DNA of 64,000 nucleotides from Rhizaria sp. SCN 62-66 (lineage: Eukaryota). The notes beneath the pieces were generated by a model that was not told the origin of the DNA, made no database searches, and worked only from the letters and a program-made list of their open reading frames with translations. The stretch lies in NCBI GenBank assembly GCA_001724265.1, contig MEDY01000055.1, positions 1-64,000 on the forward strand, written 5' to 3'. The position numbers and the translations under genes were made by a program. This document shows, piece by piece, positions 20,001 to 64,000 of this stretch (position 1 is its first letter; every line of letters starts with the position of its first letter).

Positions 20001-23000
20001 CGAGCACGGCGAGCGTCTTAGACATCATGTCGTGCGACGCCTGCGTGAGCGCACGCAGACCGGTCGCGCCGCCGACACCGGAGACGAAGCCGTTGATGCG
20101 GGCCGACGCGAGCGGGGTGCCGAGGCGCTCGGCGACGAAGGCGGCGACGTCCTCGTCGCGGCCCTCGGAGGCGGCCACCATGAGGCCCTGCAGACCGCCC
20201 AGGCGCACGAGCTCCTGCGCCAGCGGCGAGCTGGCCAGCGGGTTGCGCGCCGCGAGCAGCGCGCGGTCGAGGATGCGCTTGAAGGCGGGCGCCGTGAGCT
20301 TCTCCTTGAGAGATACCATGAAGCTGGCGGTCGAGGCCACGGCCGCGGTGGCGGCGTGGTCCTCGCAGTGGCCTAGCGCGGCCTGCGCGGTGGCGCCGTA
20401 CATGTCGGTGATGAGGTACGCCTCGAGCGCGTTGGGATCCTGCGCGACCGACGCGAAGACGTTGTTCAGGCCGCCAAGGTAGCGGAAGCGCTCAGCGATG
20501 GGCTGCGAAGCAGTGAGCTTCGCGAGGCGGGTCAGCAGCGCGGGGTCGTGGCGGGCGAGCGCGGCGAAACCACCGAACTTGGAGGCGAAGGGCGCGATGG
20601 CGGACTTGGCAACCTCAGCGGAGAAGCGGCCGGTGTAGACGTCATTGACGCGGCGGCGGCAGGCCTCGACGTAGGTGGACTCGCGCTCAGAGCGGCGCTC
20701 GCACGCCTCGACGGCGGGCAGCAGCGCGAGCTTATTCATCGTCCACACGAAGTTCTGCAGCGCGGCGAGCGACGTGCGGGCTGCGGCAGCGAGCGCGGGG
20801 ACGCCGCCCATGGGCGCAAGCATCGTGGCCAGCGGGGAGCCGGCGACGCGCTCGTCGAGCGCGAACACGCGGTTCCATGGGACGCCCGCGAGCGCGGTGA
20901 GCGTGCCCGAGGCGGTCGAGACGTTGGCGGTGACGGCGGCGGTGGACGCCGTGTCGAGCACGGAGAACTCGCCGAGCAGAGGCGCCAGTGGCGTCTGCGG
21001 GATCGTGCCGAGGAACTCGTACGTGGCGCGGCGCACCACGCGCTGGCGGCACACGGCGCGGCGCTGCTCGGCGGGCGAGCCCAGCGCGGCGGCGCAGCGG
21101 TCGGCCACGGGCGCGAGCTTGGGCGAGAAGGCGGTCCACAGCAGCGCGTGCAGCGGGCCGGGGCCCTCGAGCACGGCGGTGAAGGCGGCCGAGAGCCCGC
21201 CGTGGGGCGCGAGCAGCTGGCCGGCCTCGGAGCCGGCGAAGAGCAGTGCGGCCTTGCCCTCCAGGTCCTTGTTGGAGCGCAGCGCCGTAGCGAGGCCGAG
21301 CAGCGAGCCGTAGTGCGTGTAGAGGTGGCCGATGCGCGAGGCCGCGAGCGCCTGCTCGAAGAGCTTGACGGCGTACGACGGCAGCGACGCGCGGCCCCAG
21401 CGGGTGACGACCTCGCAGCCCTGCTTGTCGAGAGCGGCCGCATCAGACAGCACGGCGCCGCTGCGCTGGCCGCAACGGTCCAGCGCGAGCTCGACCTTGC
21501 CACCGCCCATCTGCATCACCAGCGCTTGGACCTTGGCCCACGTGTCGGCGTTGCCGGCGGGCGCCTTGAAGGCCTCAACGACGGCCTTGAGGCCACCGAC
21601 GCGGGCCAGCGCGGCGCCGATGTGCGTGTTGGCGAGCTTGGCGTCCAGCGCGGCGGGGTCGTACTTGCCCGCGGCGCCAGCGGCGAGGAAGGTGCGGACA
21701 GTGCTGCCGTGCGTGTTGAACTCGGCCGCGATGGGCGACTTGGCCAGCGCGGTGGCGAGCTTGCGGATCGACAGCGAGCGGAAGCGCATCAGGCAGATGT
21801 CCTTCTGTGCGGCCGACAGCTCAGCCTCGGCGGCGGACGACGCGGCGGAGTTGGACGCCGAATCGGCGGCTACGGAGGCGTCGAGCGTGGAGCGCACCGA
21901 GGAGGCGACTTCGCTGAGCGCCGAGAGCTCGGCCTCGCGGACCGCGGAGAAGCGTGCGCGCAGGGGAGCCGGGAACGCGGTGGACGGGCAGGCGTGCTGC
22001 GTGGCGCCAATGGAGGCGGCGATCTCGGCGCGCGTGACGGCGCGGGCGAGCACGGAGACGGGCATGACCTCGGCGTCGGCGGCCGCGGCCCAGGGGTCGG
22101 AGAAGTACACGGGGCCCGCGACGGGGACGGCGTCGCGCACGAGCGTCTCCTGCACCAGCGCGTCGTTGTAGAAGAGCTGGAGGTTGCCGTCGCGGTGGGT
22201 CACGGTGACGAAGGTGCACTCGTTGACGGGGAGCGCGTTGGAGCAGGCGATGCCGCCCTTGGTACCGTTGCGGCCGTCGACGGTGATGGCGAGCCCGGGC
22301 ACGCCGCGCGCGTCGGCGCAGGCCGAGATCGCGGGAGCGGCGACGGTGCTGCTGGCGCCGTGGCGCAGCAAGTTGCCGCCCAGGCGCGCGAAGTCAGCGC
22401 CGGGCTTGAGCCAGAACTGGTACGTGTAGTGCTTCGAGGCCGGGAAGGTCTGCGTGAGCGCAGTGTCGCGCGCGAGCTTGCCCAGCGCGGTCCACATGCG
22501 CGGCGGCACGTACTGGCCGCCGTCGCCGCCGGCGCAGTGCGAGGCCTTCTCAAGCAGCTTGGGGCCGAAGAGCGCCCAGGAGATGGACTCGAGCCCGTGC
22601 GCGCCCTGCTGCAGGTCGGCCAGGATGCGGGAGAAGCCGCCGACGCGGGCCATCAGCGCGCCCAGGCGCGACGAGGCGACGATGCTGCTGAGGCGGCCCG
22701 TGAAGGCGGCGTCGCGCGCGGCGAGCCCGTGGAGGCCGCCGTACTGGACGGCGAAGGCGCCGATGGGCGACGCGCGGACAGTGTTGGTGAAGAGCTTGAT
22801 GGCGAGGAGCTTGAGCCCGGCCTCGCCCGTGGTGTCGTACGCGTTGCAGGCCTCGCGCTGGAGCGGCGTGGTGGTGAGGCGGTAGGACACGACACAGGAC
22901 TCGACGGCGAGCTTGGCGTTGTCGCCGCCGAGCTCGAGGAAGGCGAGCAGGGCCTCAGCCGAGGGCGCGGGGCCCACGGTGACGGGGCCGACCTTCTTGA

Positions 23001-23424
23001 CGAGGTCGGCGAGCCCGTCAACGACGCTGCCGGAGCCAAGGTTGGCGAGCAGCTGCGCGAGGTGGGGCGCGTGCGTCTGGATCATGGCCGCGTTGTTGGC
23101 GATCATGGCGGGCACGAGCTGCAGGGACTGGAGCCAGCGGGTGACACCGACCTGCGAGACAAGGTAGCCGATGGGGCGCGGCAGCGGCGACAGCTGCTCC
23201 TTGACGAAGTCACGCATCTTGAGCGCCGCACGACGGCGGCAGGCGCGCTTGGCGAAGCCCAGCGACGCGGGGGTCTGGAGAGCAGCCTCAATCCGGGAGG
23301 ACATCGCAGCGTTGGCATCCATGGTCGTGGACGCCAACGCAGCACCACCTGCGGCCAGAGCTCCGCAGGTGATGAACTGCACAAGGAACCCCACGACGAC
23401 AGCGAGTGTCGTAAGGGACCTCAT
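17020..23424 (-). CDS. Giant (~2,130 aa) intronless secreted protein: Cys-bounded helical repeats, LamG/concanavalin-like domain, EGF-like domain, CCxxC motifs
   Basis: Signal peptide 'MRSLTTLAVVVGFLVQFITCGALA'; LamG-like 'YTYQFWLKP...LPVNECTFVTVTHRDGNLQLFYND'; EGF 'CPNQCSARGKC...CICDPGWTGTGC'. Ends in TAA. Confidence 0.8.
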   Translation of the reverse strand: MRSLTTLAVVVGFLVQFITCGALAAGGAALASTTMDANAAMSSRIEAALQTPASLGFAKRACRRRAALKMRDFVKEQLSPLPRPIGYLVSQVGVTRWLQSLQLVPAMIANNAAMIQTHAPHLAQLLANLGSGSVVDGLADLVKKVGPVTVGPAPSAEALLAFLELGGDNAKLAVESCVVSYRLTTTPLQREACNAYDTTGEAGLKLLAIKLFTNTVRASPIGAFAVQYGGLHGLAARDAAFTGRLSSIVASSRLGALMARVGGFSRILADLQQGAHGLESISWALFGPKLLEKASHCAGGDGGQYVPPRMWTALGKLARDTALTQTFPASKHYTYQFWLKPGADFARLGGNLLRHGASSTVAAPAISACADARGVPGLAITVDGRNGTKGGIACSNALPVNECTFVTVTHRDGNLQLFYNDALVQETLVRDAVPVAGPVYFSDPWAAAADAEVMPVSVLARAVTRAEIAASIGATQHACPSTAFPAPLRARFSAVREAELSALSEVASSVRSTLDASVAADSASNSAASSAAEAELSAAQKDICLMRFRSLSIRKLATALAKSPIAAEFNTHGSTVRTFLAAGAAGKYDPAALDAKLANTHIGAALARVGGLKAVVEAFKAPAGNADTWAKVQALVMQMGGGKVELALDRCGQRSGAVLSDAAALDKQGCEVVTRWGRASLPSYAVKLFEQALAASRIGHLYTHYGSLLGLATALRSNKDLEGKAALLFAGSEAGQLLAPHGGLSAAFTAVLEGPGPLHALLWTAFSPKLAPVADRCAAALGSPAEQRRAVCRQRVVRRATYEFLGTIPQTPLAPLLGEFSVLDTASTAAVTANVSTASGTLTALAGVPWNRVFALDERVAGSPLATMLAPMGGVPALAAAARTSLAALQNFVWTMNKLALLPAVEACERRSERESTYVEACRRRVNDVYTGRFSAEVAKSAIAPFASKFGGFAALARHDPALLTRLAKLTASQPIAERFRYLGGLNNVFASVAQDPNALEAYLITDMYGATAQAALGHCEDHAATAAVASTASFMVSLKEKLTAPAFKRILDRALLAARNPLASSPLAQELVRLGGLQGLMVAASEGRDEDVAAFVAERLGTPLASARINGFVSGVGGATGLRALTQASHDMMSKTLAVLECEILSSTWLKGYLDAVGGCLPMMEIAGRPNAPDALDELAQKRVQRLWIETGLLPLTDGTFQAAVLTGTHFEPLLRQVIVGAFSAQHGDSAHAAHFSEMFGKILGKIETPRSFLESGASASSKAGAKGKARYDPNDPDPLKKPVDDDYYPTTLTVEAIGNKDVLEHVLRLKPGPEFKPGDIMAMDIAGGVPIVDPVAAYDDSPDVMAIVAGMNKTNSTVQAPANETVPAKASMTSIASVPNKVINDVPARCPNQCSARGKCVQNTGKSLLSPSGTAYIHPYECICDPGWTGTGCEIYIDQYVRWLLSKGRYGLPKCCPTCKSQSNPLPEARWVPAASANAFPVDPKCAHPEWISDRQRRAECIRSALATRQRVVPSPDIRAANIAGDDTPTNKDIIDLSFVELSTAVTARTSEPKSFSATLFENYAARTNADLKSVEAAFDVQFAEAVRPHAEARAAEEHSRLALLESGSGPTPRAGSAAAKFPVKTAAQLQAEHDSRYTSAFNKAYSLVESKESDQPGVSVIGEQGSSKQELKVATEVIVQDTSSLFTPTPLDEIHVPECCIPCDHNPQKDPEPKFVPTPEREKSIVERLSDNPPLPHTKDPYEIGIATKLSTGREDGQKFKRRGAVERANSWAARVANPMYNRRSNSPLPSEMSIKRLDDQDNDDEQCCTICPFKHVRGIFDKSGSTAVSSANSPDGADGATNVTPASFLELDAQFLSRSEDNLYSFIEESLTLVLRDDALPSMSAAEIDALARKHKPTATASLESLLDGALDTPAFPSLAATAEDVPVSASLLRAAKVARAIQRDFPESVSLLETSATTTATATAGAKAKVQGEPFPDDPKALPIEKRAEMIVQRQMIEKYINSTKPNCVNGTEVKKVDPPKGKGFNARLARMDIWLRSEKQNSTISAQAALSDWLTKLERKRTQTMPPTPAWRGVDLSTNVNHVNVPFVPRPDKKQAPCCDMCPSVFVLRQFPHNPWEEGPGPAFEILN

Positions 23425-24156
23425 GGTTGCACCTGTCGTTAGCAAGCACAGGGACGGGCAAGCAGGGGCAGAAAGAAGCAGGAAGAGGGGGCGATGGGGA
23501 AAGGGGGCGAGGGGAGGAAAGAACCAAAGGAGACAATGCAAAGAGCCGACGGGTAAGAGTGGGGAAGATAGGGAGTGGGGGGTAGGTAGAGATATACATC
23601 ATAATTCAGTGCAATCCCTGACTGACCGCGCTGAGGGTCACGGGGGATGGGGTGACTCATCGAAAGGGGACCTCGAAGGAGTTCTCAGAAGCAAGGTCGA
23701 CAGCCCTCCCTCGAGGCGAAACCAGCACTGCCAGGCCGAGAGAGCGCCCACCACAGACATATGATGTTTAAAGAGCAATACAATTCCCTCCCGAAATTGC
23801 TAAAAGGCTATATATGCTTTCCTGGGCAGCACACAACCAGGTTTGATGTTCCCCACATGGCTCGCCCGAAATTAAGCCGCGGTGGGGGTTCAGCTGCTCA
23901 CGGTCACCTGGCTGGCTGGTCAACTTTCGCGTTCGAAACACGTTTGTGGTGGAGACGAATGTCCGCTTCTTATCATCTCTTATATACGCCCATTTCTCAT
24001 TTCATGCTAGTGTTGTTAAGATATATCATTGTGCGAAATTGCAGAAATTTAGTATATTATTTTAGTGCTCTATCTTACGATCAATGTGCTCACTTTTCAC
24101 TCATTTTGTGAAACTGATGCTGATCTTAACTTCGATTGGATCTCTTAGGTACACCG

Positions 24157-30746: not shown

Positions 30747-31313
30747 GGTGGTTCAGTTCAGTGGTCGCTGCTTCTCGTCACTCCTGCGGACAGAAGCCGC
30801 ACGCACAAGGCGGCAAGCGCGTCGGCGCGCGGGGCGGGGAAAGAGCGGGGCGCGCTGTGGCAGCGCTGGCAGGCGGGGGCAGTGGCCTGGTGGCGCGGGG
30901 TGAGGTGGGAGGGAAGGGGCTAAGACTGTGGGGCAGTGGAGTGAGGTGAGGGATCAAACAAGTGGATATGGTGAGTGTCTGCCGCCATGAGCATAAATCA
31001 AAATTAAGATCATACACAAAACACTCGCAAATAATATATATTACGCGGATGCCGCAACTGACAGATGTTTCGCTTCGCACGAGCTCGTGATAAAGAACGC
31101 GAGACGTCGACGGCGGAAGCTTGAGGTCGAGGTCGAAGCCAAACCGAACGCGTGTCAATTTGACCCTGAAAGTCACTATGTCTTCCGACAATAGAGAGTT
31201 TACCGACATAACCAATTTTTCAACGCAGGTTTGACTTCATTAATAAAACTGCATCGATGCAGCAGGATATATCTGATGCGCAACCTCTCTTGTAAGTCAA
31301 GCACCTCCTCGAT

Positions 31314-36677
<5,364 letters not shown>

Positions 36678-38321: not shown

Positions 38322-39227
38322 TTTGAATGTTGACCAATCAGTGGGATCAAACAGACTCTCTCGAGGTGAGCTCCAGAAGAGTGCGCCACCGACCGACCGC
38401 AAAGTTGGCCAAAATCACTTTCTTTTTTTGAGAACCTCACGCTTGAGGCTCTCATGGTATTTGTACACTTCTTTCACTCAGCACAGGGAGACTAGCTCTT
38501 ATCAGAATATATCAAAGCAGTTATTGTTGTCGGCATGTTAAAATGTTTGTTTCTTGTATTTTATGTTGTTCTTAATCATTTTATGCCTCGAACCCCTCAA
38601 CAACCCCGCCTACCACAGATCACTGGTTCAAGTGCTTACTGGCCTTTGCTCTTCTCCAGTCCTAGTGACACAAAAGCAAGATAAAAATGTCCTAAGACTG
38701 AAGTATTACACTCAAGCAAACTCTTAGAAACTCCCAACATACAATGAAAAACCAGATCATCACGTTCAATGTTGGTTCTAGACACATTGAAACGTGTGTC
38801 TAAGTGATTATGCTGCCGAAGCCTCCGCACTGAGTTTTCTTCTCAAGGCTACTCCTGCAGCCATTGCCGCTGTGCTGCGTGTTCACATAACGCAGCAGCC
38901 GCCGCACTGTGACCGGTCGTTGTCCCCCGGCCCAGTGCCCGGCTGCTGCTGACTGCCGCCGCCGCCGCCGCCGCCGCCGCCGCCCTGAGGCAGCGGCAGC
39001 GGCAGCGGCGGCGGCAGCTCGCGGACCCCTGCCCCCAGCTCGGTGCCGGGCGGCGGCCGCGCGCCCCCCGCCCCCGCGGCGCCGACACCGACGCCGCTGG
39101 GCAGGGAGCTGCTGCTGCCGCCGCCACCGCTGTTGCCGCCGCCAACACTGCTACCGCTCGACGTCGAGGACGACGACGAGTGCGGAGCAGTGCTTCCGGC
39201 GGCGACCGAGCTCGGGGGGGCCTCGAG

Positions 39228-40091
39228 TCAGTTGGTGAGCTGCGCGACTGCGGCGCCCACGTCGCCCTTAGCGGCCAGCAGCGCGCGCTTGGACTGCGCC
39301 TCCTCGAAGCCCATCTCCGTCAGCTGCGTAAGCGCGGCTGGGAAGGCGAACGGCGGCGCCACGGGGGCCGCAGCGGCCGACTTGGCGGCCTCGGGCTTGG
39401 CGTAGGTCGCGGTCCACTGGCGCGCCTCGGCCTCGAACTCGCGGACGGACCGGCGGTACATCTGCGCCACGACGCCGTCCTGCGGGTCGTCGGGGTTGGG
39501 CGAACACAGAAGCAGCGCGATCGACAGCAGCACCGTGCGGATCGTCTGCGCGGGGGACCACTGCGGGGGCGGAGATGCAGGGGAGCAAAGAAGGCGACAG
39601 ACGCGACAAACCAGCAGAGCGAAGGGAGAGAGGTTAGAGAAGACTTCAAGTTGGGGTTAAAATCGTGACATGCGAAAGCACGACCGAGATAAATATATGC
39701 AGAAGCACGATCATCAAGTTACAAAAGATGAGATTCACAGATGGACAGAGCAGCAACACAATCATTTCACTGCTTTTGCGATTGTTTCTAGTAGTGAGTC
39801 AATACGTACCTCATTCTTGAGGATGTCGAGGCAAATGACGCCAGTGACCGAGGACACGTTGGGGTGCCAGACCTTGGTGAGGAACTTGCAGATCGGCGGC
39901 GTGAACGGGTACCCTTCGGGGATGACGATGTCGATGTAGAACTTGCCGCCCTCGTAAGGGGAGCCCTCGGGGCCCTTAATCCAGCCGCGCCAGTGCAGAC
40001 AGGTCGACTCGTCCAGCGGCTCGGCGCCGATCTCGGAGTCCGCGGGGAGCTTCCGCAGCTCCTGCAGCTCGCGACCAAGGCGGAATGCCAT
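39228..40091 (-). CDS. Ubiquitin-conjugating enzyme E2 with C-terminal UBA (UBE2K/Ubc1/UBC27-like); exons 40091-39810, 39560-39228; possible upstream exon near 40333; possible read-through to 38883
   Basis: 'GPEGSPYEGGKF...YPFTPP...[26 protein letters not shown]', 'PNPDDPQD', UBA 'LTEMGFEEAQSKRAL'. Ends in TGA. Confidence 0.92.
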
Positions 40092-43097: not shown

Positions 43098-45193
43098 TTA
43101 TGCGTTGAGCTCGTTGTACTGGGGAGCGACGTCCTGCTGCTGGGCCTTGGGGCCGAACTTGCGGAAGACAAGGATACCGACGCCGGCGCCGACAAGCAGC
43201 GAGATGATGACGACGAGGAAGACGTAGCCGGCACCGAGGCCGTTCTCGACGAGGCCGTACTTGTTCTAATTAGAAAGAAAAACAACAACAACAACAACCA
43301 AATAGAGGACAGATGGCGACAAAATGTGAGTCATTCGTTCTACATTTAGTACACACCGTTTTGTTATTCGAAACAACAATGTGAAAAAAACAACACAATT
43401 CAAGTTATATGAGAGAGATATATACAGAGTATTTGAACTCAACGTACCTGGCAGATCTTGGAGTTGATCTGGCAGTCCTTGCCCATATAGCCCTCGTCGC
43501 AGACGCACTCGCCGAGCGCGGTGCAGCGGCCGTGCTCACTGCACTTGGCCGGGCAGTTCGGGTCGAACTTGAGCGTGAAGGTGTAGTTGAGCGCGCTGGC
43601 GGCGAGCGACTCGACGGCGAGGGTGTAGAAGCCCTTCTGGAGCTGCGCGGCGGGGACGTACATGCTCTGCACCTGCGTCGCAGGCTGCGCCGACACGAGG
43701 TCGTAGTGGGTCATGTCGGGCTGGCCGTTGTGGCGCAGGTAAAGGCGCGTGTAGGCGGTGCCGACCTGGGAGGCGGCGGCGATGATGCTCATCTCGACGC
43801 TCGCGGCAGCGTAGGCCTCGGGCACCGAGACGGAGAAGTAGAGCGTGACGTAGGGCTGGACGACGGCCGAGATGGGGGCCTGGTGGGTGAGCGCGGTGGC
43901 CGAGAGCGAGCAGTCGGGCTGCGAGTCGTAGCCCTCGTCACAGGTGCACTGGAAGGTCGTCTCGTTGCACTTGCCGTGGCCGGAGCAGCCAGCAGGGCAC
44001 ATGTGGAGGTAGCCCGTGAAGGTGTACTTCATCTCGGCCGTGGTGGGTGCGATGATCGCGACGTACCAGTCGCCGCCGACGTACTGCGCGGTGGGGATCG
44101 CGAGATAGAAGTCTTGCTGCCCCCAGTAGATGGACTGCACGGCGTCGTTGTCACTCAGCGTGGGCACGCGGCCGAGCGCGGCGACGATGTAGCCCTGGCC
44201 GGAGGTCCCCTCGCGGGAGCCGGCGAAAGCGAGCTCGTAGCCGTCGTCAGTCAGCGCAGGGAACTTGTAGTAGGCGGACGCGCCGGAGGACAGCGTGTTG
44301 GTGTACGTCTTGGCGGGCTCGGCGGTGAAGAGCTGCGCGGAGCAGTCCTCGGCGATGTTCCAGCCAGCGTTGCAGGAGCAGACGCCCGTGGCCGAGGCGC
44401 ACGTGCCGGCATTCTGGGACGCGCCGCAGTTGCGGTTGATGCAGTTGTAGGCCTCGACCATGAAGGTGACGTTAGTGTCGACGTTCTCGTAGCCGTAGGC
44501 GTTGGCGAAGTAGGTGCCCGTCTCGAGAGCCTGGGCGGCGGCGCCGCGGCGGAAGCGGACGGAGTGCTCGTCGACGATGCGCTGGTCGTGGCCGTCGTAC
44601 GTCTGGCGCGTGGGGGCGCTACCGCGCTTGACGAAGAGGTCGGGGTCAGAGGTGTCGGCCTTGGACTTCTTCATGTAGAACCACACCTCACGGTGGGTGT
44701 CGGTCACCGCGAAGGTGTGGTCAACGGAGTAGTTGAGCTTGGGGACGAGCGTGTCGCCGGTCCAAACGCCGGGAGTGAGCGGGACAGGGTCTAACAAGGT
44801 GCAAGATACGCGCGAGGGAGTGCGGGAAGTGAGGAAGATGGAGGTGAATAGGGTGTGGTTGCGTCAACACGCGCGAAAGAGATCTGAGATCGGAGTGGCA
44901 AGGATTGACGAAAGAAAAGACTGTTTCTGTTCGGCAACAGGACGCAACTAACGAGATCTAGAAGTGCCACGAAGAAGATCTCCGCGTTATTACGGGGGAC
45001 AAAAAGAAAAACAGAGCAGAGCGCCGCACACAGGACGTGCGACACCCGAAAACAGGGGTGGCAACGTCGTCTGCGGCGAAGTGAGGCGATCGATTCGCGG
45101 ATGGAAAGATTTCACTGGATACGTACCCGCGGCGTAGGCGCCCACAATGGCGGCGCCAAGAACAGCAAGAATCTGGAAAACCTTCGAAACCAT
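43098..45193 (-). CDS. Type I membrane protein with three PPC-like beta-sandwich + EGF-like modules; exons 45193-45127, 44790-43448, 43265-43098
   Basis: Signal peptide 'MVSKVFQILAVLGAAIVGAYA'; 'DPDLFVKRGSAPT'; EGF 'CPAGCSGHGKC...CTCDEGY' and 'CPAKCSEHGRC...CVCDEGYMGKDC'; TM 'YVFLVVIISLLVGAGVGILVF'; cytosolic tail ending 'QYNELNA'. Ends in TAA. Confidence 0.8.
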
Positions 45194-51556: not shown

Positions 51557-51751
51557 TATTCATTCATTCATTCATTCATTCATTCATTCATTCATTCATT
51601 CATTCATTCATTCATTCATTCATTCATTCATTCATTCATTCATTCATNNNNNNNNNNNNNNNNATTCATTCATTCATTCATTCATTCATTCATTCATTCA
51701 TTCATTCATTCATTCATTCATTCATTCATTCATTCATTCATTCATTCATTC
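51557..51751. repeat. (ATTC)n microsatellite spanning an assembly gap (Ns at 51648-51663)
   Basis: Perfect ATTC tandem array on both sides of the N run. Confidence 0.97.
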
Positions 51752-52514: not shown

Positions 52515-54337
52515 TTACTCAACGTGCTTCGTACTTCCAACTTCCTTGTTATCACAGCTGCTCATTGCACAGCTCTTATCGCCATTCATATCACACTTGC
52601 TATTGTTGTCGCTGTTCCCTGAGCAGTCATGATCGTTTCGCTTGCTCATTGCCGCACTGGTCACTTCCTCGACCTCGTCCCTGATCTGCTCGCGCGTCGC
52701 CGCATAGCCGAACTTGCCACCGCCGTAAAACGTCAGGTACGGCGGGAAGTTCGGCCTCGTCGGCGCAAACTGCGCGCTGGCCCAGTAGCCCGCGCGCACC
52801 CACGCGCACTGGACGTGGGCAAAGATGGTCAGGTGGCCGGGGGTCCCGAGCCCGGCCAGAGCGGCGAGCGCGCCCGCAGTCGCTGCGTCACCCTCAACCG
52901 CACTCTCTGCGCCAGCGCTCTCTGCGCCATTGCTCTCAGCAGCGGCGGCGGCGGTGGCGGGAACCGCGACCCCTGCTGCGTTTGCGCGCGGCGCGGGGAT
53001 GATGTGCGCCACGGTGCACACGAGGTGCGCCACGCAGTCCGCCACGGCGACGTCTCCGTGCGCGCGCGACGCCGCCACGGCCTCGCGTACCGACGCGGGC
53101 GCGTTGGACAGGGCCTGCGCGCGCCGGCGGGCGGCAGCGGCGGCCAGCGCAGCCGCCTTAGAGGCCTCGGCGACGGCGGCCTTGGCGGCGGCCGCGGCAA
53201 CCTTGCCAGCAGCAGCCTTGGCAGCCGCGACGGCAGCCTTGGCCTAGGCGTCTTCAGTCGAGGCGAGGGCGACTGAGGAATCAGTAGCAGTCGCTTCAAC
53301 GCTGTCACCAACGCTAGCAGTGTTGCCCGTGAACTGAGCGAGGCAAGGGCGCTTGGCGACGTGCTCAGGCGTGGCGTCGTCTTTGTCGCCACAGCGATGC
53401 GCCTGAGTCGTGACGCTGGCACTGGCACTGGTGCTTGCGCCAGCACTGGAGCCAGCAGTTCCAACAGTGGAGCTCTCTAAGGTAGAGGCAGCGGTGCCTT
53501 CACGGGTCTGCTTTTGCTTGCTATTCTGATGCTGTTTGTCGCTACCCTTGCTGTTGATGATGCTGTTGTTGTTGCTCGCCACAGCGGGCAGAGGCGCGTC
53601 TTCCCAACCCGGAACGCATGTCGCGATGCCCAGGCGGGCCAGCTTTGGCAGTGAAATGACATCGCCCTCGTTGTTCACAGTCTCCTCAGCCGAGGTGCTT
53701 GCATCAGAGCTACTTGCTGTTGCTTCAGTCGTCGCTGTCGCAGTGCGAGCGCTATTCGCAGGGGCGGGCTGGGGGCCGTATGTGTCGAAGCCGGAGCACT
53801 TGCCGATGCTCTTAACAGTCTCTTCCATGCCCATGACGGGGATGTTGAGCACTAAGCACGATGCAAATACAATACAAATCAACGATGAGGCAGAGACATC
53901 AGTAGGTTAGAGAAAGCACGTGCAATGTCGGAGTATGAAAGCGCAAGATGAGGCTTCGATTATAACGTACCGAAGCGGCGTGTTTTCTGCAGCAATGTTG
54001 CGGAGAATCGTGTCTCATTCATGGACATGATGAATGCACCGGCGACGTTTGTGGTAGGCGTGAGCCAGCTGATAGTCATCGCGTTGCACTTGCGCTGCGG
54101 GCCAGCAGTCAGGGGCTCGCTCGTCGTCAGCACGCACACGGGGTTCGTGTACAGCATGCGCGCGTAGTGCGACGGCGCAAGTAGCACCGGCTCGCCGTAC
54201 GGGTGCTTGTTAAGGACCAACGTGGGCAGGACCAAGATCTTCTTAGCAGAAGTTGTGACTATCTTGCTGTCCGCAGTGTGCTGAGTGGTCGCTGTGGGGT
54301 CCGCGGAGACGGGTGTAGTCTGTTCCTGTTGCGACAT
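52515..54337 (-). CDS. Flavin reductase-like FMN-binding split-barrel protein; exons 54337-53971, 53851-52515; one in-frame TAG (53244-53246)
   Basis: N-half 'RMLYTNPVCVLTT...NAMTISWLTP...FVLNIPV...IGKCSG'. C-half 'AVADCVAHLVCTV...GHLTIFAHV..AWVR..YW...PPYLTFYGGGKFG' is in the same frame after the TAG. Ends in TAA. Confidence 0.8.
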
Positions 54338-55169: not shown

Positions 55170-57467
55170 ATGTCTGAGCAAAAGCTGAAATCTCAGCTGG
55201 CCGATGTGACGGACCTGTATAACAAAGAGTGCGAAAAGGTCCGCGCACTCGAGGCCGCGCTGACCAACTTCAAGCGCCGCGAGCCGCTCGTGCAGATGTT
55301 GTGGCAGGAGACGTCCCTGCTGCGCCGCTTGCTCGACCGCCAGATGCAGACCAACCTGGCCGTGATTGACCTGCCGACGGGCCGCCTGAAGCCCGGCGTG
55401 AGCGGCGTCCAGCTCACCGACAAAGACCGCCTCGCCGTCATGGCGCTCAACCTCGTCCAGACCGAGAACGCCACGGCCGCGTTCCCGCCCGCGTTCCTGG
55501 CCGGCGCGACGTCCCCCGAGCAGGCCGCGGCCGTGAACAAGGCCGCCAGCTCGGCCGCGCTGACCGGTGGCAGCGACCCCGTCGCCGTGGCCACCGCCAA
55601 CGCCGAGGCCCGCGTCGCTGCGCTGCAGACCATCGTAGACTCGTCCTCCAACGCCTCCTCCAACGGCCCCGCTCCGGACATCTTCGCCGATGCCCCCGTG
55701 GCGCCCGCGCCCGCGCCCGACGCGTCGATCCCGCTGCCGCCCATGGACCTCTTCGGCCCCGGCTCCGGCATCCCCCCCGCGCCCGCCATGGACGGCGTCC
55801 CCGCGCCTCCCGCGGACCTCTTCGGCGCGCCCCCGGCCCCCGCAGACCTGTTCGGCGCCCCGCCCGCGCCCGCCGATCTCTTCGGCGCGCCGCCGCCGCC
55901 CGGCGACCTGTTTGGCGCCCCCGGCGCGCCCATGTTCGACCTCTTTGGCGCATCCGAGCCCGCGGGCCCGGAGCTGACGAAGCCGCTGGTCAAGCCCGGC
56001 AAGAAGATGAAGGCGCTGCACTGGAAGAGCATCATTGTTGGCGCCAAGGACAAGCGCTCCGACACGGTTAAGAACTCTATCTGGGTCGAGATCGAGAATA
56101 TGTACGACTCTGTCGTCAAGAAGGCGCTGGACAAGGCCGAGCTGGAGGAGCGCTTCACGGGCCTGCCGGTCAAGAAGGACCTGTCCAAGCCCGCGGCCAA
56201 GAGCGAGGAGGAGGACGACCTGCCGAAGCGCGTGTTCGATCCCAAGCGCCACGACCAGCTCTCGATCATGCTGTCCAAGATGCCGGCCAACGACGTGCAG
56301 CGCAAGGCGATCCTCACACTCGACACGAAGCTGCTGACCATGGACCAGATCGAGAACCTGCACAAGGCCATCTTCACCTCGGAGGAAGTCGCCATGGTCC
56401 AAGCCGCGAACCTGCCCAAGGACAAGATGCTGCTACCTGAGAAGTGGGTCACTGCGCTGTGCACCATCCCCCAGATCGCGGCCCGCCTCGAGTGCTGGCG
56501 CTTCTCGCTCACCTTCGACGCGTCCTTCAACGACGTGCACAAGCCGCTCGCGCGCGTCGAGTCGGCGTGTACGCAGATCCGCCAGTCGCAGGCGTGGAAG
56601 CGCATGATGGCCATTATCCTCGTCATCGGCAACTACCTCAACGGCGGCACGCCCCGTGGCCAGGCCGACGGTTTCGAGCTTGAGTCGCTGAGCAAGCTGG
56701 CGCGCATCAAGGACGGGTCCGGTGAGGTCTCGCTGCTCGACTACATCATGCAGGTCGCCATCAAGGTCCACGGCGAGGACTTCCCCGAGAAGCTCTCGGA
56801 CGAGCTCTCGCTGGTCGCGGAGGTTAAGAACTTCTCGCTCAAGACCATCGCAGGTGACTGCCGCCGCCTCGTGTCCAAGACCAACCTGAACAAGAAGATG
56901 CAGTCGCTGGTGTCGGCGCAGATCACCGACAACAACGACCCCTTCGACAGCGTGCAGACAGCCTTCAACGACAAGGCGGTCGCGCGCGTGAGCTCGCTTG
57001 AGAGCAAGGCCAAGTCGGTCACGGACGCCTTCGTGGAGCTGCTGCAATACCTGGACCCCGACATGCCGCGCAACAAGGCCGAGGGCGCCGACACGGAGGA
57101 GTTCTTCGCATCAATCAACGATTTCGTGCAGTACGTTGTCAAGTCTGCTGCCGACGCCAAGGCGCGCAAGGAGAACGAGCAGCGCGACGCCAAGCAGGCC
57201 GGCCACCTGGCCGAGCTCAAGAAGGCGCTGAGCAAGCCCAAGGGCCCCGCGGTGGGCGCCAGCAAGGGCACCGACGCCGCCAAGGACGCCCCCAAGGAGG
57301 AGAAGCCCGCGCTCTCGGCCAAGGAGATCGCGCAGGCGCAGAAGGCCGAGCGCGCCGCCGCCGCCGCCGCCGCTGCTGCCGCCGCCGCCGCTGCGGGCCC
57401 CGAGGGCGATGCCAAGGCTGCTGATGCTAAGGCTGACGCTAAGGCTGAGGACAAGAAGAAGAAGTAA
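55170..57467 (+). CDS. Formin (FH1-like Pro-rich region + FH2 domain); possible additional upstream exon
   Basis: FH2 motifs 'KKMKALHWKSI', 'SIW', 'LSIML', 'ILVIGNYLNGGTPRGQADGFELESLSKL', 'SLLDYI', 'EEFF'. Ends in TAA. Confidence 0.92.
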   Translation: MSEQKLKSQLADVTDLYNKECEKVRALEAALTNFKRREPLVQMLWQETSLLRRLLDRQMQTNLAVIDLPTGRLKPGVSGVQLTDKDRLAVMALNLVQTENATAAFPPAFLAGATSPEQAAAVNKAASSAALTGGSDPVAVATANAEARVAALQTIVDSSSNASSNGPAPDIFADAPVAPAPAPDASIPLPPMDLFGPGSGIPPAPAMDGVPAPPADLFGAPPAPADLFGAPPAPADLFGAPPPPGDLFGAPGAPMFDLFGASEPAGPELTKPLVKPGKKMKALHWKSIIVGAKDKRSDTVKNSIWVEIENMYDSVVKKALDKAELEERFTGLPVKKDLSKPAAKSEEEDDLPKRVFDPKRHDQLSIMLSKMPANDVQRKAILTLDTKLLTMDQIENLHKAIFTSEEVAMVQAANLPKDKMLLPEKWVTALCTIPQIAARLECWRFSLTFDASFNDVHKPLARVESACTQIRQSQAWKRMMAIILVIGNYLNGGTPRGQADGFELESLSKLARIKDGSGEVSLLDYIMQVAIKVHGEDFPEKLSDELSLVAEVKNFSLKTIAGDCRRLVSKTNLNKKMQSLVSAQITDNNDPFDSVQTAFNDKAVARVSSLESKAKSVTDAFVELLQYLDPDMPRNKAEGADTEEFFASINDFVQYVVKSAADAKARKENEQRDAKQAGHLAELKKALSKPKGPAVGASKGTDAAKDAPKEEKPALSAKEIAQAQKAERAAAAAAAAAAAAAAGPEGDAKAADAKADAKAEDKKKK

Positions 57468-58122
57468 ATGCCTGAGTCGGAACCCCGCCCAGTCGTGGTA
57501 ATCTATGCTAAACTTGGAATTTTGATTGAAGCGTGTTGTTGTGTGTTTTATCGTGGTATGGTTGTGGTTGTTATTGTTGCGCTCACTTGTACATGTGTAG
57601 ATCAGCAGAAAGAGCACAGTGACTAAACCTTGTCCCGAATGCGACCGAGACACCGCACGCACTCAGTGCGACTCAAGTTATTGATGCTGCAGCTGCTATA
57701 TGCTATACGCTTCGCCTTTTTGTTTGTTCTTTTCAATCTTATGTTCTGCTGCTGCTGTCAGCTCTTTTGCTGTCTGCGAGCTTTTGTTTTTGTTTGTGCT
57801 ACCCCATTTCTTTTGATCGTTCTTTCAATACTAGCTTTCACATGATACGTATTCCAATAAGGTAACCATGTATTACCCGTTATACACAAGATTTATCCTA
57901 CCATCGCTCGATTTTAACTTTCATTCAATGTTTTCAGTGGTGACCAGTGAGAGTGACTGGTGACTAGGGCTGGGGGCGGTGACGAGGGCTGTCTTTGAAG
58001 AACGATATCTCGTTCAAAGCTCCGTCTATAGACGTGCACTTTAAACCAAGGGATTTCGACGTACTTTTATTTAAGTTCGGTAAATACACACTTCACTGGC
58101 AGCTAGCTACCTTCGTGGAGCG

Positions 58123-61100
58123 ATGCCTCCTGTGAGTGCTACCCCCAAGGTAGACGCCATGCTTGGGGGCATCACTGCTAATGGACTCCCCACCTACCCA
58201 GGACGTTTTCACGTCATTGAGAAGGTTGGATACGGTATGTCATACATTTTTACGGCCACTTGCGCTACCATCTTATCCACCACAGCTGTATACATATGCT
58301 CCATCTGACTGCGTGATCCTTAATCGCGATCTTCCCGCCTTGCCCTGTGTCGATATTGTTCACTACACAGGCTCATTCAGCGAAGTCTTCAAAGCCGTTC
58401 CGCTCGACAACGACGGAAACCCCGACTTTTCTCAGCCATTTGTCGCGCTCAAGCGCCTCGTCCCGCTGTCGACGCCACAGGACGTGCTCAACGAGGTCCG
58501 CCTGCTGCGCTGCCTCGGCGGCACGGACCACATCATCAAGCTGCTGGACGTCGATTTCTGCCCGGAGACGCGCCGCATCACGCTCGTGCTTGAGTACGCG
58601 CCGCATGAGAGCTTTAAGGTCTGTCGTTACATCCCAGTACTTCCATATACTCTCAGAACGCTCTTTTATGACCAAGATTCGATCTCACCCCAGCCTATTT
58701 ATACTTTTCTGTTGACAGGTCTTTTTCATGCGCATGCTCCTCACGGACATCATGCACTACATGCGCGCGCTACTAACCGCGCTTAAGCGTCTCCACAGCT
58801 TCCGCATTATCCACCGTGACCTCAAGCCGGCCAACTTCCTCCACCTGCCGGGCACTCAGCACTACCACCTCGTCGACCTCGGGCTCGCCTCGGTCCAGCA
58901 AGACGCGCTCCTGGACGCCCCCGACGGCGCGGACGACGCGAACCCGCTCTCCGCGCTCGCGTCCTTGGCGGCGGAGGCTAACAGCGGATACCAGCAACAG
59001 CGGCGTCTGGCTGGGCTCAGGAACCCGCTGCAACAGCAGCATTAGCATCAGCAGCAGATGCAGCGGCAACAGCAGCAGGGGCGTCGGCTGAGCACTGCGG
59101 ACGCGATTAGCGAATGGTTTTCATCCCACATGGGCCCGCTTGCGGCTGCCAACGGCCTACCCCTGCCGCCGTCAGCCGTGGACACACCTAATGACTCTGC
59201 TTTGAGCTATGCTTCTCAGGGCGGCAGCGCTAAGGCAAAGGGCAAGATGGCTGGTAAGACCACAGACACCACTGCTGGGAAGCATAGGTTGACGCCGGTG
59301 CCACCGCCCGCTACTGCGCCAGACCGCTGTGCCAGCGCCGCTGGTGCTGCTAATAGAGCGAAGCACGCGCTCACCGATCACGTCGACATCACCACGGACA
59401 TCGATGCCAGTAATGTGGTCGGTAAGAGTAAACAGAAGTCCGTGAACCCGTTCAAGATTAACCCCGCGTCTGCTAGCACAACGGACGCCGTGACGACGCC
59501 AGATACTGCAGTTGCTACACTTGCGCCTGCGAAGCCGGTCCGTGCGTCAGCTCTTGACATCCTCCTCCAAAACACACCTGCGCCGACACCAGCTCAGACA
59601 AAGCCGAGCTCGGCGGCAGCCGTGAAAACTGCGGTGAATCGTGGTGCTGCTGCGAAGTCGAACGACATCCCCGGGCACGCGTACGGCTCCGCGTCTGAGA
59701 ACATGCCGGCCAGCGGTGGTGATGCTCCGATGAATATAGCGCTGCATGTTTCGCATGACCACACTGGAAATGCGATCACTGGCAATGACGCCCCTAAGGC
59801 TGCCAGCGAGAACCCTTACGCGACCTCGTTCGTGTCTGCGCTGGCGCAGAGCGGGCGGTACTCTGCGCAGCGCGAGGCCGAACGCACGCGGCAGCTGCTG
59901 CGCAGGCAGCAGGAACGGGACGACCTGCGCCGACAGCAGCTGCTCGATCAGCAACAGCTTTAGCAAGAGGAACAGACAAGACTTGCAGAGATTGCCACGG
60001 CTGAAGCTGCATCTAGCGCCGCTGTCCTAACTATCGCGACTGCGATGACCGCCAATATGACTGCCTCTTTGACTGTATCGACAACATATGCTGCATTGTC
60101 TCCGGCAGAGACGCCCTTGCCTGCGAGTCCACAGGCCGACCGGGGCATGGCCGGAGGTGACGATGATGCGGACTACGACGCGGTCGAGACCAAAGACGCC
60201 GATGGTGGCTATGACGTGGGATATGATGACCACAACACGTACGACGCTGGGTGGGGCGACTGGGACTATGGGGAGAACAACTACAACAACGACGACAACG
60301 CCGACAACGCCGACGCCAACGATGCCGATGTCAATGACGCTGACGGCAACTCGTCCGCCCGGTCACAGAAAAGCCGTCGCATGCAAGATATCGACCACGA
60401 TATCGGGGCGGGCAACGACAGCAGCGACGACCACAGCGATGACGGCGACGACGGCAACGGCGGCGACCCGATCCTTCGCCGAGTCTATCATCGTTCTTCC
60501 GCCATCTCTGGTGCTCCTCGGAACGCGCTTGCTTCTTTTGCCTCACCGCTTGAGGGCCAAGTGGAGTTTCGATACGGCAACGTCGAGGTGCGGTCAGCGC
60601 ACACAGCGCAACGACCTCCGCGGCGGAGCGCCGGCGCCGGCGAGACGGTGGGTGGACTGCGCGCGTTTGTCAAGGCCCATACCAACGGTGCTGCGAGCGA
60701 GACTGACGCCGGCGACGGCTCTGACGCGGCCGACAGTGCCCACGTTGGCAGCGACCGTGGCAGCTACCGTGACCGTGGTCGCGACCGTGCGGGCGGTGAA
60801 TCTCGCCGCGATCGCCGCGACCGGGACCAGAACGTTGACCGTGAACGCCATGCGCGCGACCGTGACGGCGGTGGCGAGGACGGTTACACTGGCCGTAGGG
60901 ACAATGCAGCCGACAAGGCTACCCTGCAGCATAGCGTGACGACAACGCTGGACGCAGATTCTGTGCAACAACAAGGTCACACTGTTCATAGCGTCCATAG
61001 CAGCCAGTTCGTCGAAGACGATGACCGTGACAGGGACGCGGGCTCGGAGGCAGTCTACGATCCGTCACTTTTCCCTAAATCTTCTCAGACTGCCGCGCAA

Positions 61101-64000
61101 GTCAGCGCAAGCGTAAACTCAAACACTCGCACTTTGCCTCTCCACAACCTGAATGTGAGCAGCCCTGGTGCTGTGAGGGTGCAGAGCGCAGACGACGATT
61201 ACGACTACGACGACGACCGTGACGCAGTCAAAATATCCATCTGCAGTAGTGGAAACAGCAGCACGCGGAGCCTTGCTAACAATCTTCGCAGTTGTCAAGT
61301 CATTGCAAACAGCCTTCACGACGATGACGATGACAACGACGATGACCGCGACGCTGATCTAGATGCCTTGATTTCGAGCTTCGGCAGAGATGGTGAGAAA
61401 AAAGTCGCGGCTCAAGATGGTATGACACCGCCTGCAATGAGCCAGTCTCTTAGCGCCGGTCTGAGCCAGATCCGTTCTCTTAGTTTGAGTCAGGGTCACA
61501 CCTCTCTTAGTCAGCAGCACCTGTCTCAGCCGCGTCACGGCGGTGGTGCTGCATTTGTCGACACGCATCTGCCCGTGCACGCGCCCCCATTCTCGCAGTC
61601 GCCCGTCGTGTTCCCATCACTGGCGTCCCACACGAACTCCACGACCGTCACGCCCACGACACGATCGCGCCGTGTTCCGTCCGCCGCTGCGGCTGCGCCT
61701 GCCGCGGCGCAGGATCTGCGCAGCTCGCCGCGCCGTGCGAGCATGCGCGCCGACACGAACGTCGGCGTGCAGCGCGCTAATCTGCTGACCAGCGCGCATG
61801 TCATTCTTGGCGATAGCGGAAGCGAAAGCGACACGCCACACTTCGCAGCGTCGCCAGTTAGCCTCAGGTCACTGGGAAACAGCAACGCCGGCAGCAGTGG
61901 CGGCAGACGCACGGCGAGCCCAGCCACTCGCGCGAGCACGCGCAGGACTACCAACCTGAGTCCCAACAGACCGAGAGCGTCTGGCGGCACCCGAACGCGC
62001 GCCAAGGGTCCGTTGCCCCCGCCGCCGCCCCCGCTGCCGCCGCCGCAGCCGCCACAGCCGCACCCGAGCGCGTCCCCGCCCCTGCCCCACCCTTCGCACA
62101 ACCACAACTATCCCGCCGCGCCCGGCCTCCGCGCGGGCACTGGCGCTGGCAGCGGCGGCGCTGGCGGCGCTAGCGGCGGGGTTGGCAGCGGCGGCAACGA
62201 CGTGGCCCGCCGCGCGGCCGCGTCCGCCACCGCGGCGGGCGGCTCGCTGTCGCACCAGTCGCGGCGCTGGATGGCCGCGGTTACGGGCCGCACGTCGCTG
62301 GCCGAGATCGCGCCGGTGGCGCCCTTCAGCGCCCACAGCAACCGAGCAGTCGACGGCTACAGTGGCGGCGGAGGACAGGGGCTGCATAAGCGATCGCGTA
62401 TCGCCGCATCTGGAGGCGCACTGTCTGCGGCGACAACCTCAATGCCGGCCTCGCTATCAAACGTCGCAGCCGGCGCATCTCTGCACGGCCGGAACGTCAC
62501 CGCGCCCGCGACGCTGCCCACCCGCAGCAGCAGCAGCAGCACTGCGGTTGGCGGCCCTACTGTGAGCGCAAGCAACGCGGGCATGGGCGCTGGCAGCGCC
62601 GAGGCCGGCAGCAAGGCCGCCGCGCTGCGCCAGCGACTGGAGAGCCTCAGCGCCAACCGCAGCGTTACTGCGAACCACCACAACAACAACAGCAGCAACG
62701 CCAACAGCGCTGGCGGCGGGCCCGGGCACGTCCGCGGTGTTGGCAGCATCAGCAACGCTGGCAGCATGCCACCACCCGCGCATCCGCCTGCACATCACTT
62801 CTTCCGCGCCGCGACTGTATCTGCGACCACAGCGTATCTGTCCGCGGGCGCCGTTGCGGCCGGCCAGTCCTCGAACCGGGACTCGTCCTCCGCCTCAGAC
62901 TCCGGCGCCGCCGCCGGTGCCGCAGCCGCCGTCCCGCGCTCGGGTTCGTCGGCCTTCCATTCCGGCGCGGCCGGCGTTGTCGTCACTGGGACTGGCGTCG
63001 CCGCGCGCCCCGCGGCCCGCGTCCGGGCTGAGGTGGCCTTCGCGGCGGCCACGGCGGCGGCGGCGGGCGCGCGCGGCACGCACACGTACGCCGGCGCCGC
63101 GCTCGTGGCCATGGGCCGCGGCGACGTCGAAGTCCCCATTCACCACCACCCCAGGCAGCAGTACCAGCCCAGGCCGCCGGCGGGGGCGCCGCGGAAGTTC
63201 GTGCCTCCGCAGCAGCAGAACCAGGGCCAGCAGCAGCCGGCGGGCCGGGGCAGCCGCGGCAGGCCGCAGGTCGTGGCCGCAGTTGCGCGCGCCGGCACGC
63301 GGGGCTTCCGCGCGCCAGAGGTGCTGATGCGCGAGAGTGCGGTACGTGTGTATTATATTGTTGTGTGTATTCTTTAACTTAATCGACCCTGAACATCTGT
63401 TTCTCTGCATACTTCCCCATATTTCCTGCTAACTTCGCTGACATGATTTTCCGTGTTTTTTTTTTTTTTTTTTTTTTTAAGACGCAAACTGTTGGACTCG
63501 ACACCTGGAGTGCTGGAACAATCCTTCTCACACTGCTTTGCCGCAGGTACCCCCTGTCCGTGGCAAACGAAGACATTGTATCTCAGGCAGAGCTGATTCG
63601 GTTGATGGGGACACCAATCGACCAGGACCCTTCGCACTACATCCTCAGCGACCGCGCTGTGAGCACCGAGTCCGTTCCCGAGACTATGGACGGCGCGCGC
63701 GGCCTCTGCGCCCGTCTGAACCCTTCCGTGCGATGGCCCGAGCCCGTGCTTGCGCTACTGGACGGTCTGCTTGCCGTTGACCCGCGCGAGCGACTGTCGG
63801 CCGCTGCCGCGCTGGAACTGCCGTTCTTCGACCCCGCGCAGTTCGACGCTAAGGCGTGGGACGACGCAGCATTCCCGGGCTGTGTGTCGCTGACCGAGGG
63901 CGGGAAAGGCGCGCCGCTGCCCGGGGGACCGATGCCTCTGGGCAGCGCCGAGGATGGCTTCGTGGTGGCAGGCTGCGCGGAGTGGAGCGATGACGAGTGA
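58123..64000 (+). CDS. CDC7: Cell division cycle 7 kinase with giant kinase insert 2; exons 58123-58234, 58371-58618, 58719-63341, 63482-64000; two in-frame TAGs (59043, 59961)
   Basis: 'KVGYGSFSEVFKA', 'VALKRL', 'YMRALL.AL', 'IIHRDLKPANFL', 'LVDLGLA', CDC7 signature 'RAGTRGFRAPEVL', 'QTVGLDTWSAG'. Ends in TGA at 63998-64000. Confidence 0.9.

Follow-up and report, generated by a model that had tools for sequence, protein, structure and literature searches.

In-frame TAG codons in a CDC7-like kinase gene and three other genes of an activated-sludge eukaryote: a possible reassignment of UAG

A CDC7-like kinase gene with two in-frame TAG codons

We analysed a stretch of 64,000 nucleotides (nt), positions 1 to 64,000 of contig MEDY01000055.1 (Rhizaria sp. 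SCN 62-66), referred to here as the window. At its end lies a gene for a CDC7-like protein kinase in which two TAG codons stand within an otherwise open frame. Three more in-frame TAGs are found in other genes, and no likely gene end in the window is a TAG. Gene models were read from the sequence, from Pfam profiles and from a sequence search of the Protein Data Bank (PDB). The sequence is that of a eukaryote, with long exons and short, AT-rich introns, and its GC content is high (52-76% in 2-kb steps). The structure of the CDC7-like gene is as follows:

58123 to 58234, forward strand: exon 1, with an ATG at 58123 and the start of the Gly-rich loop, read from the sequence and a listed open reading frame (ORF) start
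58235 to 58370, forward strand: intron 1, GTATGT...CAG, 136 nt, AT-rich; with exons 1 and 2 joined, G|GC and the GxGxFSxV loop are restored
58371 to 58618, forward strand: exon 2, kinase N-lobe (VALK lysine, alpha-C Glu), Pfam Pkinase positions 10-86
58619 to 58718, forward strand: intron 2, GTCTGT...CAG, 100 nt
58719 to 63341, forward strand: exon 3, 1541 codons, with HRDLKPAN, DLGLA, a low-complexity insert and RAGTRGFRAPE; Pkinase positions 99-148, E 1.9e-10
63342 to 63481, forward strand: intron 3, GTACGT...AAG, 140 nt, with a long T run
63482 to 64000, forward strand: exon 4, the remaining kinase C-lobe (DTWSAG...), Pkinase positions 176-263, continuing to the window end

The Pkinase profile is thus covered in three colinear pieces, and the kinase motifs are all intact (GYGSFSEV, VALK, HRDLKPAN, DLGLA, FRAPE and DTWSAG). 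In the PDB search, CDC7 chains rank first for all three parts tested, with other kinase families scoring lower. The top match for the N-lobe is yeast Cdc7 (E 8.8e-5). Human CDC7 comes first both for the part with the catalytic loop (E 2e-10) and for the C-lobe, where the alignment starts at QT..D.WSAG (E 4.3e-10). Judged from its sequence, the gene at 58123-64000 is a CDC7-like protein kinase.

As in the CDC7 kinases (Hsk1, the DDK catalytic subunit), an insert separates the DFG-equivalent from APE. The insert of this gene stands out by its size and its relaxed codon usage: between DLGLA and RAGTRGFRAPE (subdomains VII and VIII) lie about 1460 low-complexity residues, all within exon 3. The insert in the solved human CDC7 is much shorter. 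The GC content at third codon positions (GC3) of the insert is about 0.64. A metagenome scan with the insert matched 582 pattern stretches, none of which was confirmed as a relative. A protein search with it returned only the window's own 301-amino-acid (aa) ORF, which leaves no orthologue to compare at the TAG positions; this fragment occurs on seven contigs, up to 217,638 bp long. A run of about 30 T bases at 63457-63479 stands directly before the acceptor of intron 3.

Both TAGs of the gene are located inside the insert (X marks the TAG in the translated contexts):

59043 to 59045, forward strand: first in-frame TAG, codon 109 of exon 3, context CAG CAG CAT TAG CAT CAG CAG CAG (QQHXHQQQ), C at +4
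59961 to 59963, forward strand: second in-frame TAG, codon 415 of exon 3, context CAG CAA CAG CTT TAG CAA GAG (QQQLXQEEQ), C at +4

When 58722-63377 is translated with TAG as Gln, it forms one open frame, which differs from translation table 11 only at residues 108 and 414. Exon 3, bounded by a CAG acceptor and a GTACGT donor, holds two TAGs but not a single TAA or TGA in its 1541 codons. From the position-specific composition, 12.0 TAG, 3.7 TAA and 3.2 TGA would be expected (6.9 for TAA and TGA together). The lowest stop total in 2000 shuffles of the exon was seven, and the other five frames hold 19 to 64 stops. On these numbers, selection against TAA and TGA keeps the frame open, while the two TAGs are tolerated. 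Downstream, 1433 codons of the exon are still open. At both TAGs at least five of the eight neighbouring residues are Gln, which is true of only 16 of the 1541 positions in the exon.

HRDLKPAN and DLGLA are upstream of both TAGs, and RAGTRGFRAPE with the rest of the C-lobe is downstream. A first-pass annotation, made from the letters alone, had already recognised the gene as CDC7 and argued that a functional kinase requires both TAGs to be decoded or removed. The PDB ranking and the intact motifs bear out the identity, and unless both TAGs are decoded no kinase protein would result. The Gln-run contexts that it quoted are found exactly as given. Its three ORFs (58728-59045, 59058-59963 and 60045-63377), which share a frame and are split only by TAG, can now be drawn as the single exon 58719-63341.

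Transcript and metagenome contigs across the TAG codons

Introns of the CDC7-like gene are 100-140 nt long, compared with roughly 110-210 nt elsewhere in the window, and AT-rich. They start with GTAYGT, GTCTGT or similar, and donors in the window are mostly GTACGT or GTATGT. No GTRHGT donor was found in the 400 nt upstream of either TAG in exon 3. The flanks of both codons are open, and the coding score is best in the gene's own frame right up to the TAG. Splice junctions that would remove 59043 or 59961, which the first-pass annotation had named as one observation that would speak against its reading, therefore find no support.

RNA cover of exon 3 was proposed there as a check, and for the first TAG there is a candidate. 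In run X1, a polyA metatranscriptome, the contig of record 4 (depth only 2.1) covers 58829-59083, 255 nt, without a difference, and reaches 214 and 38 nt on the two sides of TAG 59043, which is thus unspliced and unedited in this contig. Two more contigs from the same run lie inside the insert, at 61449-61710 and 61919-62575. TAG 59961 is bridged by no RNA contig. Record 31 of run X4 matches 59957-60643 with no differences, and here the TAG is just 4 nt from the contig end. Runs X2 and X3 contribute small shares, mostly in a gene for an FH2 protein, and many bins of the window have no RNA cover. No joint between contig parts is of the GT..AG type. The joints that do occur have non-canonical ends and 20-21-nt sides, and they lie in simple GC-rich repeats. 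On these grounds we rejected them as repeat artefacts.

At 62017-62350 there is a spike in contig depth (111 in X1), together with many odd joints with 20-21-nt sides. The GC-rich simple repeats of the insert appear to draw contigs from other organisms.

An independent assembly also carries the first TAG. Contig L001 of a Joint Genome Institute (JGI) metagenome is identical to the window over 56464-59719 (3256 of 3256 positions). A metagenome scan with the FH2 protein of the window found one locus, with this same sequence. Between the runs and the window there are only a few differences per 10 kb. After 57483, in the 3' untranslated region of the FH2 gene, all four runs have one A more than the window and L001; this may be a strain difference or a homopolymer error.

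In-frame TAG codons in three other genes

Three further in-frame TAGs were found in three other genes:

52518 to 54337, reverse strand: flavin-reductase-like gene, with exon 1 at about 54337-53971, an intron, exon 2 at about 53851-52518 and a TAA terminator
53244 to 53246, reverse strand: in-frame TAG of the flavin-reductase-like gene, residue 203 of the 445-codon exon 2, within a low-complexity insert
32385 to 32387, forward strand: in-frame TAG in the first long exon of the gene at 31296-36674, with a DUF676 esterase domain downstream (35085-36674, E 1.7e-35)
9508 to 9510, reverse strand: in-frame TAG in the acidic low-complexity tail of the gene at about 10873-8506

The flavin-reductase-like gene is the most informative of these. 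Its exon 1 matches Flavin_Reduct at E 3.1e-4, below the Pfam cut-off. The protein has 92 matches at E<=0.001 among 1.84 billion representatives, most of them with several matched stretches. P0020, a homologue of 501 aa, matches residues 1-101 at E 2e-10 and residues 247-394 at E 1e-35. Another (P0049) aligns with residues 1-23 and 260-381, and P0003 does likewise. The homologues thus flank TAG 53244 within one exon and one frame, so that the arrangement resembles that of the CDC7-like gene, in which conserved halves also flank a TAG-bearing insert inside a single exon. The first-pass annotation had called the CDC7 gene the best local evidence for UAG=Gln, a rank that it can no longer claim alone given these alignments on both sides of the TAG. 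A PDB sequence search with the flavin-reductase-like pieces gave nothing meaningful. The protein databases carry only fragments of the two products, 301 aa for the CDC7-like and 196 aa for the flavin-reductase-like protein (P0018, which stops at the TAG), each ending or beginning at a TAG.

For the other two genes the evidence comes from codon usage and open frames. At TAG 32385 the codon score is highest in the gene's own frame on both sides. TAG 9508 is flanked by 169 and 334 open codons, and the other sense frames have 1-16 stops per 100 codons. The contexts of the three TAGs outside the CDC7-like gene are AEAEXEDL, TEDAXAKAA and GVPMXMND, i.e., Glu-, Lys/Ala- and Met/Asn-rich with no Gln nearby, and the bases at +4 are G, G and A.

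All five in-frame TAGs lie in low-complexity inserts that cannot be aligned, and a Pfam search of the read-through ORFs gave no domain match spanning any of them. GC3 is about 0.57-0.66 in the low-complexity inserts (59046-61763, 8506-9507 and 53247-53852), compared with about 0.9 in exons that code for domains. For four of the five TAGs, codon usage is relaxed in this way (GC3 0.57-0.65) on one side or both.

In the whole window, 59 stops are flanked on each side by 100 or more open codons (22 TAG, 10 TAA and 27 TGA). The codon score is best of the six frames in the stop's own frame on both sides for only six of these, the five TAGs above and one TGA, at 39228. This TGA was rejected as a sense codon: it is a real terminator, five residues past a UBA domain, and the stretch downstream is GGC/AGC-rich simple sequence. 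The codon-score filter alone can therefore mislead, and the strongest cases are the three TAGs with homology on both sides. TAG 42011 was also tried and rejected, as it lies inside an ordinary GT..AG AT-rich intron.

Gene ends in the window

Coding-like ORFs, judged by their last 50 codons, end in 13 TGA, 11 TAA and three TAG (n=27). None of the three TAGs is a terminator. TAG 27715 is inside an intron of the Vps34 gene, TAG 47668 is inside an intron of the ACBP gene, and TAG 5032 ends an ORF that is antisense to a better-scoring one. The three introns of the window that hold the TAGs at 42011, 27715 and 47668 are all ordinary, GT..AG and AT-rich. At least four of the TGA or TAA ends are exon ends inside introns. 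After these exclusions about 20 likely terminators remain, with no TAG among them. Nine are anchored by a domain whose end is close to the stop (five TAA, four TGA, no TAG):

TAA terminators: Vps34, ACBP, eL42 (Ribosomal_L44), Enkurin and FH2
TGA terminators: Cox11, E2-UBA, Ras-like GTPase and DUF676

In sense codons G is strongly preferred over A at the third position (CAG 187 vs CAA 17; AAG 229 vs AAA 9). Given this bias, it is worth noting that about ten terminators are TAA and none is TAG. If the TAG share were 20%, an assumed figure and not a measured one, none in 20 would have p ~0.01.

Other features of the window

Past the TGA of the E2 (UQ_con) and UBA gene, the frame stays open for 113 more codons (38886-39230, reverse strand) of Ser/Gly/Pro-rich simple sequence without a Pfam match, ending in ...CGGCCVM (CaaX-like) before the next stop. 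The openness may be due to chance in GC-rich repeats, or the stretch may be a readthrough extension. An assembly gap of 16 N is found at 51648-51663, between a KH-domain gene and the flavin-reductase-like gene. Two very long single exons on the reverse strand, 17023-23598 and 43442-44863, code for proteins of extracellular type that carry Laminin_G_3 and teneurin-like EGF domains; the former has 2192 codons and no stop of any kind. The Enkurin gene at 6669-7016 (reverse strand) hints at a flagellum or cilium. The nearest relatives of the FH2 protein have 46-47% identity, and a protein atlas yielded no more than broad clusters of eukaryotes. A scan of prokaryote genomes matched 191 pattern stretches, none of which was confirmed.

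Decoding of UAG and its alternatives

We suggest that this organism decodes UAG as an amino acid, most likely Gln, and terminates only at UAA and UGA, a reading that we hold with about even confidence. The three TAGs in three other genes and the absence of a TAG terminator support a change that is organism-wide. The two parts of the proposal do not stand equally firm. Decoding of TAG is well supported. Gln is plausible, and given that TAG is a sense codon we lean towards it. The first-pass annotation had proposed UAG=Gln outright; its decoding half is supported, whereas the identity of the residue does not follow, as no TAG falls in a conserved alignment column.

Under this proposal, the ribosome would pass both TAGs of the insert that separates DLG from APE, and the full kinase would be made. 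UAG would be a rare sense codon, used within the window only in poorly constrained low-complexity inserts. The decoder would be a tRNA with anticodon CUA, probably derived from tRNA-Gln, and eRF1 would no longer recognise UAG, as in other eukaryotes with a reassigned UAG.

Several observations weigh against this reading. TAG is very rare, with five in 14,486 coding codons or about 1% of CAG, CAA and TAG together, and long exons of high GC3 are free of it (e.g., 2192, 1161 and 1020 codons). With none of the five TAGs in a conserved column, the amino acid has to be read from context, and TAGs formed from CAG by mutation would lie in Gln runs whatever TAG means. One-step nonsense changes in these codons give TAG in about 70% of cases, so that five TAGs out of five is weak evidence (p ~0.17). 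The sample of about 20 terminators is small. The RNA contig across TAG 59043 is shallow and DNA carry-over is possible in a polyA library; no spliced joint of the CDC7-like gene, which would prove an RNA origin, was seen. The runs that share the TAGs are near-identical strains, therefore their conservation says little. A scan of the 64-kb window for tRNA genes found none of any kind, and an Rfam scan of the window gave no match. The window does not include the eRF1 gene.

UAG could also be a sense codon for Glu, Lys, Leu or Tyr, with the Gln runs merely recording a C-to-T origin from CAG in tolerant regions. We consider this somewhat unlikely, although no conserved column constrains the meaning here, and three of the five TAGs, whose neighbourhoods lack Gln, would fit one-step ancestors GAG or AAG. 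Extracts of PMC5304391 and PMC11687900 document UAG as Leu in the rhizarian exLh and in some phyllopharyngean ciliates, but in the same extracts Gln is a documented meaning in codes where UAG alone has changed. Gln runs make up only 1% of positions yet hold two of the five sites, and the changes from Glu to Gln and from Lys to Gln are conservative, so the remaining contexts also suit Gln. Gln is, moreover, the commonest meaning of a reassigned UAG overall.

Explanations that keep the standard code fare worse. The TAGs may be leaky premature stops, read by a near-cognate tRNA-Gln in a Gln-rich context with C at +4, so that some full-length CDC7 is made. Both sites in the kinase gene have this base and this context, and extracts of PMC13192750 report that yeast premature stops in Gln-rich sequence are passed with Gln inserted. 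However, the same extracts give about 1.6-8% per stop, and with two such stops in one gene the yield of a key replication kinase would fall well below 1%. A strict Q-stop-Q arrangement is seen at neither site, and with no Gln context and G, G and A at +4 in the other three, the explanation fits at most two of the five. It also leaves the lack of TAG terminators unexplained, and we regard it as improbable. Still less probable, to our mind, is that the TAGs are recent nonsense mutations in null alleles or young pseudogenes, where intact copies may exist elsewhere or the genome may be decaying. CAG-to-TAG is the easiest route to a stop, as the share of TAG among one-step changes indicates, and the few differences between the samples sharing the TAGs would have left no time for further decay. 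Yet this would require that, in 64 kb with about 20 genes, four genes took five nonsense hits in all, without a frameshift, TAA or TGA and with splice sites and motifs intact. Two of these hits are separate ones in the CDC7-like gene, which nevertheless stays open downstream, and the gene ends without TAG are again not accounted for. Finally, the transcript could lose the TAG stretches as unconventional in-frame introns, or have them changed by U-to-C editing, before it is translated. Nothing direct speaks for this, and only the second TAG, which no RNA contig bridges, leaves room for it. The polyA-library contig passes 59043 unchanged, there is no strong donor near either TAG of the kinase gene, their flanks are open and coding-like up to the codon, and the introns of the window that do hold a TAG are of the ordinary type. 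We therefore consider it very improbable.

Relation to known code changes

Reassignment of UAG alone to Gln, while UAA (and UGA) still terminate, is described for the fornicate Iotanema spirale in extracts of PMC5304391, and UAG-only reassignment to Gln for the ciliates Hartmannula sinica and Trochilia petrani in extracts of PMC11687900. As far as these extracts go, the likeness is close: UAG is in frame in conserved genes, UAA and UGA but never UAG stand at gene ends, and Gln is proposed. However, the genome sampled in the window is GC-rich with ordinary introns, its UAG is far rarer and seen only in unconserved inserts, and Gln is putative. Nothing that can be read from the letters of the window would point to a ciliate or a fornicate.

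The rhizarian exLh (Sainouroidea) uses UAG for Leu: in 71 genes, of which 56 end in UAA and 15 in UGA, there are 384 in-frame UAGs, most of them where Leu is conserved (extracts of PMC5304391). The window resembles it in that UAG appears to be sense and the terminators are only UAA or UGA. In contrast, in-frame UAGs in the window are less dense by about two orders of magnitude, and their contexts speak for Gln, Glu or Lys more than for Leu. Readthrough in yeast, in extracts of PMC13192750, is similar in that Gln is inserted at a stop that has Gln-rich surroundings and C at +4. It differs in amounting to a few percent and in depending on context, while here three of the five TAGs do not have that context and TAG is missing from the terminators.

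UAG-only changes of the nuclear code are known from only a few eukaryote lineages. The source samples of the sequences are activated sludge and wastewater, and full-text searches of the literature, supplementary files aside, found no description of a eukaryote from such habitats with a reassigned UAG. It can be speculated, with rather less confidence than for the decoding of UAG as such, that a GC-rich, intron-bearing and probably flagellated lineage has reassigned UAG independently and is caught early. UAG would have gone from gene ends and re-entered about 1% of Gln-type codons, only in fast-evolving inserts.

Gene callers that use the standard code break genes at TAG, and so the proteome of this organism, including an essential replication kinase, would be mis-annotated in metagenome resources. 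If the reassignment is genome-wide, it would be a further case of a known UAG-only code change. A case that does not look like a ciliate and uses UAG very little would, if true, be informative on the loss and recapture of a stop codon, and a lineage at such an early stage would be a natural snapshot of codon capture.

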